A stretch of DNA of 63,897 nucleotides, filler included, from Stramenopiles sp. TOSAG23-2 (lineage: Eukaryota), in the NCBI GenBank assembly GCA_900128395.1. It is 4 parts of 4 records of this genome, joined end to end, with 100 filler letters (N's around TTAATTAATTAA, not from the genome) between each part and the next. Parts side by side here need not be neighbours in the genome. Positions count along the whole stretch, not along the records: positions 1 to 15,991 come from LT649690.1; 3 more parts are not named here. The stretch is one strand, 5' to 3'. Below are positions 1 to 9,167 of the stretch, one piece after another (the first letter of the stretch is position 1; each line of letters starts with the position of its first letter). A program made the translations under genes and the position numbers. A model generated the notes under the pieces. It was not told the origin of the DNA, ran no database searches, and saw only the letters and a list, made by a program, of their open reading frames with translations.

Positions 1-59
1 AAAATGTTGATAGGAAGCGAAAAGTGCAGGTCTAAGCTCTCAGCCTGTCTATATATATA

Positions 60-242
60 TAATTAGAGCTGTTTTCCAATTTAAGGACTTTTCGGGACAA
101 AATTCGCCAACCAGACCCTTACCCTTAAATAGCTCACAGTTTAAGGAGCTAAAGCACCTTAAACCACAGCATAAATAAGGTAAAAAATTTAATTACGAAT
201 TTTGTCCCGAAAAGTCCTTAAATTGGAAAACAGCTCTAATTA
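60..242. repeat. Long fold-back hairpin (47-bp perfect inverted repeat, 89-bp structured spacer)
   Basis: 60-106 TAATTAGAGCTGTTTTCCAATTTAAGGACTTTTCGGGACAAAATTCG is the exact reverse complement of 196-242; the spacer contains a GTTTAAGG...CCTTAAAC sub-hairpin. Confidence 0.95.
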
Positions 243-749
243 ATAAGTTCAGAAAAATTTAAATTTTTTCGTTAAAAAAGTTTTTTTTGTTTTTGTGTTT
301 TATTTTTGCAAAACTGTAAAAATTATCAAAACCAAAACTGCTCTTCATAATTTTCATTATTTTTAAAATTTTACTGCATAAATCTAAAATTTTTATTTTT
401 CCAGAATTTTACTTTTTTTCGTTTTTGCGTTTCTTTAAGTCCTTTTTTTAAATTAATTAATTTCGACCCCCGTGAATTGTCTTTAAACCCTTTTTTTATT
501 AAATTAATAAAAACTCCCAAAACCCCATTTTTAAAAAAACTCCCCAAACCCCACTTTTCCTAGATCCGGCGGTCAATTACGCCGCTATCAAACTCCCATT
601 TAGCCAGAATCATGCAAAATCCAAAGTCCAATAATACCAAAATTATCGTTTTTGAAGGTTTTTTTCGAAAATTATTTTTTTTGGATTAACAGCATAATTG
701 CTGCGGGTTTCGACAACACCTAAATTGACCCTTACCATAAAAAAACTGT

Positions 750-818
750 TGCAAAACAGTGAATAATAGATTTGCTGTACAGTATATAAAATCGATTTCT
801 ATTATTGACTGTTTTGCA
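750..818. repeat. 21-bp inverted repeat (1 mismatch) upstream of the orphan ORF pair
   Basis: TGCAAAACAGTGAATAATAGA (750-770) vs TCTATTATTGACTGTTTTGCA (798-818). Confidence 0.85.
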
Positions 819-1062
819 CTCCCTTTTTATGCTCTCACTCCCTTTCCCATTTAGGGCACTTTCACAGCATTTAAGGTTTGAGAAATGAAAAAAAGTCAAT
901 TTCGCAAAAACGAAAAAAAAGGATATTACCGTTTGTTATACACTTATTTTAATAAAAATAAAATAAATATACAGAATAATAAATATTACATGTAAATATA
1001 AAAAACATTTAAAAATAAAAAAAAAGAATATTTATTTATTAATTACTTATATATATATAAAA

Positions 1063-1386
1063 ATGAGTGACCGTGATTCAGCCGTGATTCAAATAGAAGA
1101 AATGATGTTGAATAAATGCACCAATAACAAAGATGCAGACGCAAGCATGGATATAAATTTTATCATGAACCTGTTGATCCCTAATATTTGGTACAGACTA
1201 TGCGTAAATATAACTGGAGATCTAAGACAACGAGCGATAAATGTATGGAATAATTGTGGAGGAATAGGAGATATTTCCACAGCTACATACGGACAGGTTG
1301 CGAATCAACAACACGCACTGCAAAGGTATTGTAATTTTATTTACCTGAAGTCACGAGATATAGAAAACGAAGATGCAGAAGTATAA
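1063..1386 (+). CDS. Hypothetical protein, 107 aa, no recognised family
   Basis: ATG after an A-rich leader; complex composition in otherwise AT-rich noncoding DNA; 26 bp from the next co-oriented ORF. Confidence 0.6.
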   Translation: MSDRDSAVIQIEEMMLNKCTNNKDADASMDINFIMNLLIPNIWYRLCVNITGDLRQRAINVWNNCGGIGDISTATYGQVANQQHALQRYCNFIYLKSRDIENEDAEV

Positions 1387-1412
1387 CTGCTGATATTTTA
1401 TATTTCATACAC

Positions 1413-1952
1413 ATGACATTAGGGCTTATTGATGAAGTATTTAGAACATTTCGTGGCTTTATTCTTAGTCATAATGCACGGTCTTTTTACAGAATACTTT
1501 ATGTGTTTATAAATCTGCTGGCATTCTTTTTCATTGCAATTTTTTCATTTACAGCAGTATTGATCATCATCTATGTCATCTGGCTCTGTTTAAAGTTCCC
1601 AGTACTGTCTGCATTATGCAGTTGTAGCACTCTTTTCACGTGTGGTCTGTTGGGTCAGCTGTTTACCACTGTATCAAAGTTGCATTTAAATAACGACACA
1701 GGTAAATTAGAATACTGGACTGTTAACGACCAAGTTAGTGAATTTGCATACTGGATGACTGCAGAGGGTAAATTTGTGAGGTTTAAGTTAGAAAACTGTA
1801 GCGAAACGTGGTTTGGAACATGGTTTGACTGGATTCCATACCTTCTCATACCTGTAAGTTTATTAATTATATATCATCTGGTGGACCTCTGTGCCAGAAA
1901 AACGGATTCCATAAACAGAGAAATCAGAATAAAAATGGACGCTGTTGGTTAA
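1413..1952 (+). CDS. Hypothetical membrane protein, 179 aa (2-3 N-terminal hydrophobic helices, one C-terminal helix)
   Basis: Long hydrophobic runs (ILYVFINLLAFFFIAIFSFTAVLIIIYVIWLCL; WIPYLLIPVSLLIIYHLV) flanking a Trp-rich soluble loop. Confidence 0.65.
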   Translation: MTLGLIDEVFRTFRGFILSHNARSFYRILYVFINLLAFFFIAIFSFTAVLIIIYVIWLCLKFPVLSALCSCSTLFTCGLLGQLFTTVSKLHLNNDTGKLEYWTVNDQVSEFAYWMTAEGKFVRFKLENCSETWFGTWFDWIPYLLIPVSLLIIYHLVDLCARKTDSINREIRIKMDAVG

Positions 1953-2378
1953 AAAAGCAGAAAAGATTGTATTAGTATTACTTCCATGAGATGTAGTAAA
2001 AATTGCATTTCAATTTTTTGTAAAATTACTAGAAAATTGAAAAAATGAATAAAAAAAAGGTTGTTAAAGTGTGTATTTATTGATTAATTAAATTAAAAAT
2101 TATCGTTTTTAAAAAGGGTTGATACCCATTTATAAAACAGGTCTTTTATTAAAGGGTGTGTTGTGTGTGTGTGCGAGAGAAAAGAGTGAACTAGGGTCTT
2201 TATCTATTGAATTTTTTTAAAAAAATATATAGAGTATAAAAGATATATATATAGATCTGAGGTAGTTTTCTTACTTTCCACTCGTTATTTACATATTCTT
2301 TATATTCAATAACTCAATATATTATTTATTTTAAAGTGGCTTAAAGAAATAGTCCACAAAATCATAGAAAAAGTACCA

Positions 2379-2500
2379 AAAATGCTACTATTTTAAAGAA
2401 AAAATGTGAAAAAAACCTAAAAATACTACTATTTTTAACAAAAAAAGTGAAAAAAACCGAAAAATACTACTATTTTTTAGAAAAAAAGTTGGAAAAATCT
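2379..2500 (+). repeat. Three imperfect tandem copies of a ~40-bp unit
   Basis: AAAAT(G/A)CTACTATTTT...AAAAAA.GT.GAAAAA recurs about every 41 bp. Confidence 0.75.
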
Positions 2501-2780
2501 AAAAAAAATAAAAAATTTTTATGAAAAAAAATGTAAAAACCTAACAATTTGTAGCACTCAAAGTTGTAAAAACTAGACAAAATCTAAAATCTAGATCAAG
2601 TTTTGCTTTATTTTTGCTTACTTGAGATACGTCAAAAGTTGCAAAATGAAGAATTACCTTCCAGAAAGTAGGGGTTTTTTAGGGTTACAGAGCTTTATTT
2701 TGTCCGAAAAATGACCAATTATTCAAAAAACGGTAAAATGGGGAATTGTATTTACCTGCTAATGAATCCGAGAATCCTAA

Positions 2781-2986
2781 TTATTAATAAAAACCGGAGT
2801 ACTAACCTTGGTCATTTAAGGACTTACTACATGTTGTGGTGCTGGTAACGTGTTACCAGTGCCACAGCATGTACCTAACTCTAATGCTATGAGACTGCTA
2901 ATGTACATTAGCAGGTGAATAGCATAGGGAGTTAGGCGGGGTTAGTCCTTAAATGACCAAGGTTAGTACGCCGGTTTTTATAATAA
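2781..2986. repeat. T-shaped (three-way) fold-back hairpin
   Basis: Outer stem 2781-2824/2944-2986 (1 mismatch, 1 indel); arm 1 2828-2849/2852-2873; arm 2 2874-2936 with the perfect palindrome CTGCTAATGTACATTAGCAG. Confidence 0.95.
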
Positions 2987-3030
2987 GAATAATACTATCA
3001 ATATACTAATACGTAAAAACACACACACAC

Positions 3031-3495
3031 TCAATCGCAACAAGTATGGCATGTTTCAAAACATCTACAACAGTGTTTTAAATTTACAAAGATTAAAACG
3101 CTTAAAAATATTAACGAACTACCCATAACAGCGACTAAATAGAATTCTGGATTTTCCATGACAGGACACGGCTCGAATTCATCTTGACAAATCCCAACAA
3201 ATTTTACAACACACATCAAAATAATTGTTAATACCAATAATGCAATATTTATCCATATCAATTTGGACTTCCACCTCAAACAACATTGTCTACATGCTGA
3301 TTTCTTAGCTTGCTTATTAAATTTCTTTGCACCAATTAATAATTTTCTACTTTTTATACGTGTATCTTCTATATCATCCATGGTATTATATGCTTTTTCT
3401 ATATTATTATTCATTAAATCAGTCAACTTATCTGTTTCTGATATTAATGCTTTTAATCTTGGATCATTTTTATTATGATTTTTTTTTCTTGGCAT
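3031..3495 (-). CDS. Divergent synaptobrevin/VAMP-like SNARE with two TM segments
   Basis: LMNNNIEKA...IEDTRIKSRKL...AKKFNKQAKK...W-K-K-TM matches the synaptobrevin coiled-coil pattern. Confidence 0.7.
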   Translation of the reverse strand: MPRKKNHNKNDPRLKALISETDKLTDLMNNNIEKAYNTMDDIEDTRIKSRKLLIGAKKFNKQAKKSACRQCCLRWKSKLIWINIALLVLTIILMCVVKFVGICQDEFEPCPVMENPEFYLVAVMGSSLIFLSVLIFVNLKHCCRCFETCHTCCD

Positions 3496-4122
3496 TTTAA
3501 ATTATTTGCATATATATATTTATATATATATATCAATGATAGTATTTATATGGGGGGATGTATATATTGATGTAGATAAATACACACACACACACACAAA
3601 CTATTGTCTATGTTAATATAAATAGTTTTTGTGAGTTGTTTTGCACTTCTTGTTTTCAAAAATAATTAATATTAGAATTATTATTATTATTATTCTAGAA
3701 TTATTATTACTATTGAAAAAAAAATCAACAATAATAAATTAAAATATTATTATTTTTTCATCAATAAATTTTTTAAATTATTTCCGGATTTGCCGTTCTC
3801 AAAAATCTTGAAGAAAACCTTACATCGTTCAAAATCCAAAATCGGGTCTTCCACACACTTTTTTTTTAGTTCATTCGTGTGTGTATATACTAATAAGTAC
3901 AATATACTATGTAGATTTTATGTGATTTTATTTGTTCATTTTTCCATTAAAAAATACAATAGTGTACCGATTTTTTTAATATAAAATATAATTTTAAGGT
4001 AAACAAACGGCGCCGTCGGCACCAAATTAAAAGAGTCTGACGACGCAGACTAGCACCAAATTTACAAACGGCGCCGTTTGCGTTTGCGTTTGTGCCGTGC
4101 CGTTTGCCAGCACTAGTTCAAT

Positions 4123-4862
4123 TAGCCATCGCCCGATTACTAAACGTGTTTTCCAGACTTGCAGAAAATCCTGTTTTGTCTAATTTCAACCCTTAAAATA
4201 GCAACATTTTTGTAATTGTCATTATTCAGTGCTGTGTCCTTATACGGTCTATTTTGGAGCCTAATCATTGAAATGATCTAAAGTACAATATTTTACTCCG
4301 ATCCTTAAGATTTTGGTCTTATCGTTGTTTTTTTTTTCAAATATTTCTGAAAAATAAAAGTTAGTGTAGCTAAATCACGAATCTCCGTAATACTAAGCCC
4401 ATACTAGCACCAAAAAACTTGGTGATATTGCTAAATTTATCCACCTTAGATGTTATTTAGATGATCATAGCACTAACAAGCTAGTGGAAAAATATATTAT
4501 TTGTACTTTTACAATTTATTAATTACTATATTTAATGCTGTGTAGGCTTTTTTAACCATTCATCTGTAATAATCTGATGACGAGGAAGACTTTGTTATTA
4601 CTGTTATAAGTACATTTTGTGAAAATGTCCCAATCAAAATGACAATTTTTAGTCCCAATTTACTAACAAATTTTAGTAATTCTGATTTAGCATTATCATA
4701 CAATCAATTAAAAATTACTACACAAATTACTAATAAATTACTAAATTACTAAATGTATATATCATCCTTAACAAATCACCAATGCTATGTACCTGCAATA
4801 ATAATATTTTAGTAAATTACTAAAAAATTTACAGAAATTTTTTAGTAATCGGGCGATGGCTA
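4123..4862. mobile_element. Non-autonomous hAT-like DNA transposon (740 bp)
   Basis: Perfect 22-bp TIRs TAGCCATCGCCCGATTACTAAA / TTTAGTAATCGGGCGATGGCTA; 8-bp TSD AGTTCAAT at 4115-4122 and 4863-4870; TAG...CTA ends; subterminal ATTACTA repeats; no ORF. Confidence 0.92.
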
Positions 4863-5210
4863 AGTTCAATTGCGGGCTGGATTAACAATTATTATTACAG
4901 ATTACAGATTACAGTATATATTTGCATTTATTATTTATTATGCGTATTACGTAATATACGTATTTATAATAATAATACAGTAGTATGTAGTATGTACAAA
5001 CTATAATTATATTAATATTATTTACTGTTCCTTCAAGAAATCAAAATCAAATAATAAGAATTATGCTTTTTGCCAAGCGAAAGAAATTGAACGCTGTTGC
5101 ATAAACCTGATCAAAGAACGATTAAATCGACGATAATCAATACACACGGTTTACACTCTTCACAGTAACTAAAGAATAAAGGAGTGCAAGGTTAATTGTT
5201 TAAAATAACG

Positions 5211-7459
5211 ATGAGTATTGTTATTCAACAAATAATACATTTTTTTGCAATAGTAGTGGTATGCAACTTCACTACCTTGCAAAGTAAATCTGTTTTGCGA
5301 TGAATGAAGTATATTTTGCTGGTATAGATACATTTACTATAAATAAAGATGCTGTCTTAAGTACAAGAGATACAGATATCAATTTAATATTTTCAAAATT
5401 AATCATGCAATCCTCATCAATTTTAAAGTCCAAAAATGAAGCAATATATTTAAAAGGAAACGTAATACATGTTACAGAAAGTGCAATTGTAGAATCCCCT
5501 TATATTTTTGTAAATGGGACAAATATATTTATATCACCATTATCAATATTTAATGGCGAAGTAATACAAATATTTTCAAGATTGAATTTAGTTACAAATG
5601 GTACATTAAATACTGGTGGTGGGACAAATGGCAAACTACATTTAGAGTCGTTTGATAATTTTCATTTAGGTGAAAATGCTAAGTTATTGGCAAGTGGCTG
5701 TTCATCAAATACTCAAACATCATGCAGCTCAGGATCAGCTGGTGAAATTAAAATAAAATGTACCCATTTTACTGGATGGTACGTTGAGAGTTGATTCACG
5801 CGGATACGATAGTGATAGTGGACCTGGTGCAGGATGCTCACCTAGTGATTACACTAAATCCCAATTATTTTATGCAGGTGCTGCTGGTGGATCCCATGGT
5901 GGAAGAGGTGGGAATGCAGATAGGTATATAACTGCTGCTGGGTCTAGTACAAATAAATGTTATTCTACTTCATACGAACCATCGATATATGGTAGTAGTA
6001 GGGATACAGCTTTTACAATGGGAAGTGGAGGGGGTACTGTGCGATATCACGTATACGACTACCTTGGGGGCAAGGGTGGTGGTAGAATAAAAGTTGAATC
6101 ATTTAATACAATTGTTTTAGGACCTTCATCGGTAATAACAGCAAATGGCGAATCGTTTACATCTATAAAAGGTGGAGGGGGTGCTGGAGGTAGTATATGG
6201 TTGAAATGCGTGACATTGATTAGCGAACAAAGTGCAATACTTAGTGCAACTGGTGGTGATGGTGGAAATTATATAAAGAGCGATAATAGTCGACGTATCT
6301 GCTCCGGCGGTGGTGGTGGTGGCCGTGTGTTAATCGACATGAAACAATCAAATACTGGCATTAATTTTGTGATTAAACTTAACGGTGGACAAATGGCTTC
6401 CGGGAGAACAGATTATATTGCTGCAGTTCTTGTTTCTGTTGCATTATTTGCAGAAAGAAAAACGGAAAAGGTAATACCAAGATTGTTAGACGAAAATCAA
6501 AGGTAGAATTATTAAGGGAAGAAACAGAACGTGTAGCTAATGAAATATTCATTTTAGTTGATGAAGATAATAGTGGTATAGTAGATGCTAATGAACTTAC
6601 TGATCTACTGAAAAATTTAGGTAAAAGTAAATCTAGAATTGAATATATTATAAAAACATTTTGTCCTGAGAATGGAATACATGGTGTAGATTTGAATAAA
6701 ATAAACGAAGAAGGCGAATCGTTGTTATCAATTGCATCCAGAAAGGGTGAAGTGCATGTTGTGAAGGCTCTTGCACAAGGTGGTGCAAATGTTGATTTAT
6801 TAGATCGTAATGGCCATACCCCTTTGGACAGTGCGATACACTTTGGGCATTTAGATGTTATTAATGCATTATTAAAATCTGGTGTAGATACTAATGGATT
6901 GGATAGCAATGGCAGAACACCTTTATACAATGCTATATTGGAAAACAAATTAGAAGTGGTAAAAGTGCTGCTATCAAATCGAGCAAATGTAAAAAGTGGT
7001 GGAGAAGGCAAAGGTATTTTTACCCCCTTAGCTATTGCAGCTAAATTAGGACATACGGAAATACTTCAAATATTGATTGATAAACATGTAGACTTAAACG
7101 ACGGTGGTGATGCAGCGTATCCACCTTTAATTGCAGCTGCAGAAACAGACAGAGTAAACATCATGAAGCATTTGAAAAAATACGACTGTAATGAACATGT
7201 GCGTATTAAAACTGGTACAAATAAAGGTGTATCTGCATTATGGATAGCTGCAAAGTATGGTTCTTTAAATGCTGTAAAATTATTGATATCATGGAACGTG
7301 AAAATAAATGCGGTTTCGGAGAGTGGAAAAAGTCCATTGGATGTCGCTATACAAAATAAGCATGTAGAAATTATAAAACTTTTAGAAAGTAAGGGTGGAT
7401 TGCATGGTTCTGAATGCATCAAACATACAACTACTCGTTTTGAAAATGTATTTGAGTAA
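5211..7459 (+). pseudogene. Frame-disrupted receptor-like gene: signal peptide, Gly-rich ectodomain, short TM, EF-hand, ankyrin repeats
   Basis: ATG 5211 hydrophobic leader; ORFs 5300-5794 and 5784-6506 (GGSHGGRGG, GSGGG, GGGAGGSIW); the frame of ORF 6692 is open from ~6410 and contains DEDNSGIVDANE (EF-hand) followed by ~6-7 ankyrin repeats (G.TPL..A). Confidence 0.65.
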
Positions 7460-8114: not shown

Positions 8115-9167
8115 TTAACCATCAAGGCAAATACGACAAGATGGACAAGTTTTACTGTATTCTCTCAACCATTTCTTAATACATGATTTATGGAATATAC
8201 GGCCACAACATGGTAATTTTACAGCCATTTTTTCGCCATCTACTTCTTCTTTAACCGCTTCTAGGCATACACGACATTCATAATTGTCATCATCCGGTAC
8301 TTTCACGCATTCAAACTTATCAAAAATGTCTTGCTGTACAGTTTTATATTTCTTATCGTTTGTTTCATCTAATAATAGCAACATCGCAAAATCTTCGGGG
8401 GTGATTTCACGACACATCATATCTAGTAATTGTGCTTCCGTCATTAAGCCTGCATTGACAGCAGTTGCTTCTTGGGGATCATGAAAATGATCATCTGCAT
8501 ATTCTTCATCATAATGGCGATGATACTGATGATGATGACGATGTGGACGAGAAGGTTCTTTTTCTTCCTTTTTCTTTTTTTCCTTCTTCTTCTTCTTAAC
8601 ATTTTTGTTGCTGCGCCTGTTATTTGTTGTAGCTGTTGGCTGTTTATATATAGGTACTCTTGGCTTTCTCTTACGTTGCCCAATATTATTTCCATTATTT
8701 TTTGCAGAAAATGCCTTCATCCTGTTTTTTTCTACTTTCCTAGGGACCAATGCTGCTGTTTTACCAGAGCAAAGAATGCGATCTAATACTGACATTTCAG
8801 ACGTTGTTGACGCTACTACTACAGATGGTGGTGTGGAAGAGCGCGAAGAGGAAGAATCATTATAGTTTGTTTCTGGACAATGATGATTAATAAGATGTAA
8901 ACCACGTGAAGATTGTATACGCGGTAAGCATGTACTTGGGCGCTGTTTGCGAAAGGACCTAACAGTCCTAGGAGTTATTGCTTCTAATCGTCTTGGAGTC
9001 ATCATGTTATATTTTTTACTTGGTTTACCAGTAACACCATTCAAAGGCAAAGGTTTCAACAAGGTTTTGTTTATATTAAAATTATTACCACCAATTAAAT
9101 GTAACCCAGAGGTTTTATTTCCCCTCGGGGTTATAAATTGTCGATGTCGATGATGCGTAGCCGACAT
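8115..9167 (-). CDS. RING-H2 finger protein (putative E3 ligase)
   Basis: C-terminal CRVC...LPCCGRIFHKSCIKKWL...CPSCR preceded by REITPEDFAMLLLLDE. Confidence 0.88.
   Translation of the reverse strand: MSATHHRHRQFITPRGNKTSGLHLIGGNNFNINKTLLKPLPLNGVTGKPSKKYNMMTPRRLEAITPRTVRSFRKQRPSTCLPRIQSSRGLHLINHHCPETNYNDSSSSRSSTPPSVVVASTTSEMSVLDRILCSGKTAALVPRKVEKNRMKAFSAKNNGNNIGQRKRKPRVPIYKQPTATTNNRRSNKNVKKKKKEKKKKEEKEPSRPHRHHHQYHRHYDEEYADDHFHDPQEATAVNAGLMTEAQLLDMMCREITPEDFAMLLLLDETNDKKYKTVQQDIFDKFECVKVPDDDNYECRVCLEAVKEEVDGEKMAVKLPCCGRIFHKSCIKKWLREYSKTCPSCRICLDG

Follow-up and report, generated by a model that had tools for sequence, protein, structure and literature searches.

[quoted passage not shown] As in the element studied here, these palindromes lie at the very ends of integrated elements. 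The example described has 52-nt palindromes inside the inverted repeats of complete viruses, with target duplications and RVE integrases, whereas our element has branched, dissimilar hairpins of about 200 nt, a putative recombinase-like helper and no viral genes. For recombinase-type PLVs, the relevant section of PMC11296320 proposes that the inverted repeats serve in replication as the origin and in recombination as the site. Gezel-14T and the PLVs associated with entomopoxviruses, which combine a tyrosine recombinase with a PolA- or AEP-helicase replicase, have in the parts that treat them a gene set like that of the putative helper here (10.1101/2022.07.28.501842, PMC11296320, 10.64898/2026.10.13.758929). 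The passages describing Gezel-14T-type PLVs mention neither branched terminal hairpins nor a capsid-less 3-kb derivative. In its section on the subject, a 2026 survey described as elusive both the way in which PLVs that lack a protein-primed polymerase copy their ends and the reason for their pairing with tyrosine recombinases (10.64898/2026.10.13.758929).

Three other systems share part of this architecture. Transpovirons, in the portions of the source that cover them, are small, linear, capsid-less DNAs with terminal repeats that depend on a virus and can ride in virophage particles; they are about 7 kb long, with matching inverted repeats of 380-520 nt, and are episomal with giant viruses (PMC7031253). 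The element here has a length of 2.9 kb and hairpin ends that differ from each other, the right one being found integrated at many sites. Heterotelomeric parvoviruses, as described in the section on their telomeres, have two different fold-back ends of 100-550 nt on a small linear unit (PMC12297876), whereas our element has no Rep/NS1 and no capsid gene, and no flip-flop was seen. DINE-1 and HINE Helentrons, in the passages on their structure, have non-coding ends with palindromes, internal tandem repeats, AT-rich targets and no obvious target duplication; however, these palindromes are 5-15 bp long with matched subterminal repeats (PMC4067079), and the Helitron-like family of the genome studied here has its own ends. 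The words "hairpin" and "palindrom" are absent from the main text of PMC10120064 and of 10.64898/2026.06.19.733378. The literature search, with subscription journals, Repbase and preprint supplements outside its scope, returned no report of branched, unlike ends on a capsid-less derivative. Palindromic PLV ends and the hairpin-priming model are already known, and branched dissimilar ends on a satellite without viral genes are apparently new.

The window, which is the whole stretch of DNA that was analysed (63,897 nucleotides, filler included), consists of four contigs joined by N. The element lies at the very start of the first contig (G000:C1484), in an AT-rich eukaryotic assembly of 32.8 Mb and 9146 contigs. 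Its sequence is also present in two small assemblies of one organism and in marine metagenomes, and the runs carrying it suggest that the host is a marine protist. The features of the element and its flanks were as follows.

1..49, plus strand: left flank, outside the element, where a distinct inverted-repeat element of ~1.25 kb, located in TA tracts, has its right end (8 genome matches)
50..61, no strand: (TA)n tract at the left junction
60..242, no strand: left hairpin, with a 47-bp perfect stem (arms 60-106 and 196-242; cores 79-89 and 213-223)
243..1000, no strand: T-rich left subterminal region, holding a 21-bp inverted repeat within 750-818
1063..1386, plus strand: ORF1, 107 aa, predicted all-helical soluble protein (relatives at 64-87% identity)
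1413..1952, plus strand: ORF2, 179 aa, orphan, predicted membrane protein by hydropathy
1978..2161, no strand: conserved box opening the shared right-hand unit (86% to C3044; first 42 bp 100% to C1826)
2295..2553, no strand: A-rich region with four 41-43-bp repeats (79% to C3044)
2669..2780, no strand: conserved subterminal box adjoining the right hairpin (in all 7 aligned ends)
2781..2986, no strand: right hairpin, Y-shaped (cores 2814-2824 and 2944-2954; element end at ~2979-2981)
3031..3495, minus strand: right flank; host synaptobrevin gene (PF00957, E 1e-12)

Both large fold-back palindromes reported in the initial annotation were confirmed by DNA folding, with a z of about -17.5 for each hairpin and none of 200 shuffles as stable. 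Their shapes differ: the right hairpin is a Y with two inner arms and 95% complementary outer arms (2787-2827 and 2941-2981), and the left has one nested inner stem. The claim that these dissimilar hairpins hold the same core was also borne out. The core ATTTAAGGACT (11 bases) occurs at 79, 213 (minus), 2814 and 2944 (minus), and the longest word common to both stems is 12 nt, a length reached by 4 of 3000 dinucleotide shuffles. Three further copies of TTTAAGG, the central 7-mer of the shared stem word, lie in the left loop (1 of 2000 shuffles reached that number). The left flank is 45% T and the right flank 56% A, with the 41-43-bp repeats at 2356-2553 and the 21-bp inverted repeat at 750-770/798-818, so that the biased flanks, ~40-bp iterons and inverted repeat were all present as claimed. 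A partial copy of left-stem sequence near 2690-2710 was present too, but its best local match was not beyond chance, being reached by 312 of 2000 shuffles, and its two pieces come from different arms. Read in inverted orientation, the left subterminal region had a weak resemblance to its right counterparts; the best two of six comparisons were equalled by 1 and by 5 of 200 shuffles. An Rfam search gave no match, and the early promoter word of giant viruses was not enriched (12 of 60 shuffles) within the element.

The right end behaves as a mobile terminus: immediately beyond the stem it is joined to AT-rich flanks that vary from copy to copy. Close and diverged copies lie on about 14 other contigs of the genome; the genome search with the right end gave 11 contigs, and later searches gave four more diverged copies. 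Full right ends formed one group at 90-100% (window, C3044, C1924 and C1826, with partial copies on C4293 and C6463) and a second at about 70% (C3012 and C2965). Another seven copies consist of a diverged hairpin alone and lie, for the most part, between host genes. The 7 ends that were aligned, which represent two related groups and not 7 independent events, all keep the 110-bp box on one side and have unrelated AT-rich DNA on the other side just past the stem, and the junctions of 8 copies diverge immediately after it. At the metagenome locus L151, the hairpin and inner 270 bp of the window recur nearly identical beside a different flank. A mobile integrated element, as proposed initially, is supported by these copies. 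The case set against it, in which the hairpins occur independently and the ORFs are syntenic host genes, was half observed: right-type hairpins do occur alone genome-wide. A MITE in the form of a solo ~200-bp fold-back did not describe the family, since full copies extend at least 110 bp on one side. Pattern matches on C8163 and C1608 were not clear members. Searches with hairpin patterns gave 0 and 5 matches in viral contigs, the five being unstructured and phage-like, and 0 matches in prokaryote genomes.

The two arms of the right end evolve together. Nine of 39 outer-stem pairs had changed on both arms and none on one arm only, leaving 98.5% paired; most of the two-sided changes separate the two right-end groups and represent few events. 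The loop had the same orientation in 7 of 7 aligned ends. The core is the most conserved part of the right end and the constrained part of the hairpins: in the seven diverged solo hairpins 135 of 154 core positions were kept compared with 824 of 1264 elsewhere, a difference inflated by two of the seven having been found via the core itself.

These copies also bear on whether a real unit owes its place next to the synaptobrevin gene to a false join that the assembly made through the right hairpin, which is multi-copy. A 212-bp stretch of the window is identical on C3044, the stem mismatch 2798/2970 mixes the C3044 and L151 variants where the other 6 ends pair, and the right junction is spanned by none of the contigs aligned to the window. 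However, the position of the junction, at the end of the stem, agrees with that in other copies, and a contig of X4 diverges from the window exactly there, and we regard such a join as very unlikely. This X4 contig matches 2979-3502 and has 125 other letters in the hairpin's place; it may represent an allele without the hairpin. A loose end at 61 in X4 was rejected as an empty site because the flank there is a multi-copy repeat. In X3 and X4, 1170-1837 (the ORFs) was uncovered and the host gene was present with 0-1 differences, while in X1 and X2, 3007-3674 was uncovered and the element was present (0.91 of words in X1). These gaps would fit a polymorphic insertion or a free copy and would equally fit amplification dropout or filtering, and serve as leads only.

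The initial annotation had taken the two hairpins to be the ends of one unit. The right end does occur at varied flanks, but the left hairpin may not travel with it: it is single-copy in the assembly even at three mismatches and is lacking on three right-ended copies with a readable left side (C3044, C1924 and C1826). The terminal repeats of the two ends do not match; what joins them is the shared core and the weak inverted likeness of the subterminal regions. A ~200-bp AT-rich hairpin with a 24-bp perfect stem on C2926 (L050:700-905) was considered as a second left-type end; its likeness to that end was not beyond chance (429 of 1000), and it had no significant likeness to either end type. 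Pieces of the left subterminal region were found 1-4% diverged in the metagenomes X3 and X4.

The right-hand 1 kb (1978-2986) could instead be an independent one-ended mini-element, with its large hairpin at one end, internal repeats and a plain opposite end, and the left hairpin another in opposite orientation, with the orphan genes bracketed as a composite or by accident and the closeness to PLVs reflecting shared insertion hotspots. The right-hand unit starts at the same place (1978-1980) on three contigs with unrelated upstream DNA, and on C1826 it is about 750 bp long. The right-ended copies without a left hairpin and the seven solo hairpins point the same way, as do the other repeats that adjoin the window's left end and the start of C3044. 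Against this, the left hairpin carries the core and faces outward at a TA tract, beside the end of another repeat, and one contig of one run (X1) spans 196-2809 with a single difference. Together with the PLV evidence below, this leaves independent one-ended elements as the main rival account, possible but doubtful.

An unrelated one-ended family with the same 11-mer was also cited for that account. It is an abundant 1.1-1.5-kb element of animal-like metagenome contigs (L062-L182, except L151), with a 230-bp terminal hairpin holding the 11-base core, ~150-bp internal repeats and, at the far end, a short stem-loop, a HINE-like layout with an unusually large hairpin. Its loop was flipped in 7 of 58 scorable copies. 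The family made up 122 of the 123 metagenome pattern matches listed, beyond which further families may exist; it was chosen by pattern and has nothing in common with our element except the searched word, which may be shared by chance.

PLV genes lie on the inner side in three of the six full right ends with a readable inner side, compared with a share of at least 0.18% of the assembly for the PLV-bearing contigs examined. Each of these three ends has the PLV genes on its inside, and C3044 keeps them in PLV order, which argues against independent one-ended elements. On C3044, fragments of the cargo gene, helicase, next ORF and fibre are followed by a right end 97% identical to that of the window. 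On C3012 (about 70%), the hairpin stands 385 bp after recombinase-like and truncated minor capsid genes, and the capsid gene does not resume past the hairpin, which again disfavours a one-ended insertion. On C2965 (also about 70%), the inverted hairpin faces outward, and a PLV module that includes an A32 ATPase follows it at a distance of 2.8 kb. The right end of our element is homologous to these ends. In the reading that we prefer, with a probability of about 0.5, recombinase-type PLVs of this protist are both the source of the 2.9-kb unit and the agents of its movement, the unit being non-autonomous; the element is real and mobile, and it is probably PLV-derived. Several observations count against PLV derivation: on C2965 the hairpin is separated from the PLV genes by a host-like M54 peptidase gene (602 aa), a 76-bp piece common to C3012 and C2965 runs in the wrong direction for a simple inverted repeat, every PLV contig breaks before a terminus, and neither ORF1 nor ORF2 had a homologue among the PLV contigs compared.

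Dependence on a helper, which the initial annotation had predicted, agrees with these right-type ends, and the likeliest helper is virus-like. The putative helper genes in the genome include a double-jelly-roll major capsid protein (PF21738), a protease (PF00770), an ATPase (PF04665) and helicases (PF19263 and PF02399), and the PLV contigs carry a fibre and two kinds of helicase-fused replicase. Three genome proteins are those we take to be tyrosine recombinases, from their catalytic motifs in alignment A1 alone. These recombinase-like proteins had no match in Pfam, PHROGs, PDB sequences, phage records or the 5.8-billion set. Nothing matched in the controls of a Crypton family search, and viral contigs held no relatives of the capsid, recombinase or ATPase used as queries.

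Two of the PLV contigs, C2422 (its end, L046) and C2383 (its start, L041), share 17 identical residues at their ends and by this match are probably neighbours in one virus, whose replicase has a helicase domain of the herpes origin-binding type (PF02399). In L032 (1-249 / 6111-6359) and L041 (2055-2109 / 8248-8302), contig ends repeat an internal stretch in reverse; these are probably amplification chimeras.

The two ORFs are co-oriented, 26 bp apart and free of Asn/Asp runs, as first noted, with no N/D run over 3 residues. The element was likewise said to lack a Rep, polymerase or transposase of its own, and with two ORFs only, neither matching any family, this stands. An autonomous PLV was rejected on the same grounds, there being no PLV match to either ORF. 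Each ORF is single-copy in the genome. ORF1 has relatives in three clusters (five sequences) at 64-87% identity and is therefore probably a real gene, judging from sequence. It had no match in Pfam, PHROG, Atlas or fold comparison (best Z 5.0, with a low-confidence structure model), no loci in viral contigs and no likeness to the ORF of C1924. In ORF2, a long stretch at about residues 25-65 is hydrophobic, as is another at about 135-160; its model had a pTM of 0.34, and sequence searches found no relative.

If the element is indeed derived from PLVs, the hairpins would be the cis end signals of the PLV family, in which the left hairpin would count as a third type of end that shares the core but has diverged further. 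In a free stage the end would fold back and prime synthesis by the polymerase-helicase or primase-helicase of the helper, one arm being copied from the other; such fold-back priming would account for arms that change together. The tyrosine-recombinase-like protein of the helper is predicted to bind the core and would join the ends into TA-rich sites, which would explain both the conservation of the core and the precise end. Since each palindrome holds the core in both directions, the ends could act also as direct repeats, the interior being lost and a solo hairpin left behind. ORF1 and ORF2 would be exchangeable cargo.

PLVs themselves are often parasites of giant viruses, and the recombinase of integrons acts on folded ends at attC sites. 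The element could be a new class of eukaryotic satellite that parasitizes PLVs: a 3-kb linear, hairpin-capped DNA with two unlike ends, copied by fold-back priming, integrated by a helper recombinase acting on folded ends much as at attC, swapping single-gene cargo and existing also free in the cell. We consider this fuller picture rather unlikely. The right-end family offers a concrete substrate for the question of how such PLVs copy their ends, with a 200-nt branched end, an invariant 11-base core, co-evolving arms and candidate helpers in the same genome. A minimal natural derivative of 2.9 kb would define the cis sequences needed, and the element would reveal one route for the movement of orphan genes in a marine protist that is uncultured.

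The initial annotation had compared the hairpins to the replication origins of heterotelomeric parvoviruses, and the analogy did not extend beyond shape. An endogenous or defective parvovirus-like element with heterotelomeric ends would fit the size, the terminal position and the dissimilar branched hairpins of ~200 nt, within the 100-550-nt telomeres given in the relevant part of PMC12297876. However, neither ORF resembles Rep/NS1 or capsid, the linked genes are those of double-jelly-roll PLVs, and the single loop orientation in the aligned ends shows no flip-flop and argues against AAV-type terminal resolution. This origin is largely refuted by these results. Flip and flop forms from terminal resolution do not occur at every parvovirus end.

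We also considered whether an HUH Rep-helicase moves the element, which would then be a HINE-like, non-autonomous derivative of a Helentron/Helitron. A Helitron-like Rep-helicase is encoded on C2348 of the genome (PF05970 at E 4e-17, with PF14214 below the cut-off), and HINEs combine terminal palindromes and internal repeats with absence of target duplication in the passages describing them (PMC4067079). Of the Helentron families of the genome, the end comparison covered that of C2348. The derivatives of this family have a different end in common, one that lacks a large hairpin and any core at up to one mismatch, and the likeness of the C2348 element to the right hairpin was at best at 8-11 of 500 shuffles among eight tests. 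HINE palindromes are moreover 5-15 bp and not 200 bp in the same passages (PMC4067079), and our element showed no evident sign of matching subterminal inverted repeats of 11-15 bp together with a short 3' stem-loop. A Helentron origin is quite unlikely on this evidence.

The Rep-helicase ORF of C2348 (L206) is more than 2100 aa long and has many non-coding derivatives across the genome. On C4957 (L232:3119-3296), a 39-bp perfect inverted repeat lies beside an ORF with a Helitron-like segment. On C781 (L060:4370), within a 1470-aa RNase III-domain ORF, six bases of the inverted core stand 6 bp after a copy of the core; this spacing, like that of a recombinase site, is probably due to chance.

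Other repeats were found around the element. The one ending at 1..49 belongs to a non-coding fold-back element of ~1.25 kb (G000:C1463:13758-15008, L198), whose ends are inverted and whose insertion sites are TA tracts. Two of the 8 genome matches to its end are an inverted pair on C1463, and TA-rich sequence follows all 8. In the same intergenic region of the window, a further small element occupies 4122-4863; its inverted ends of 23 bp are perfect, and its depth is high in the aligned runs.
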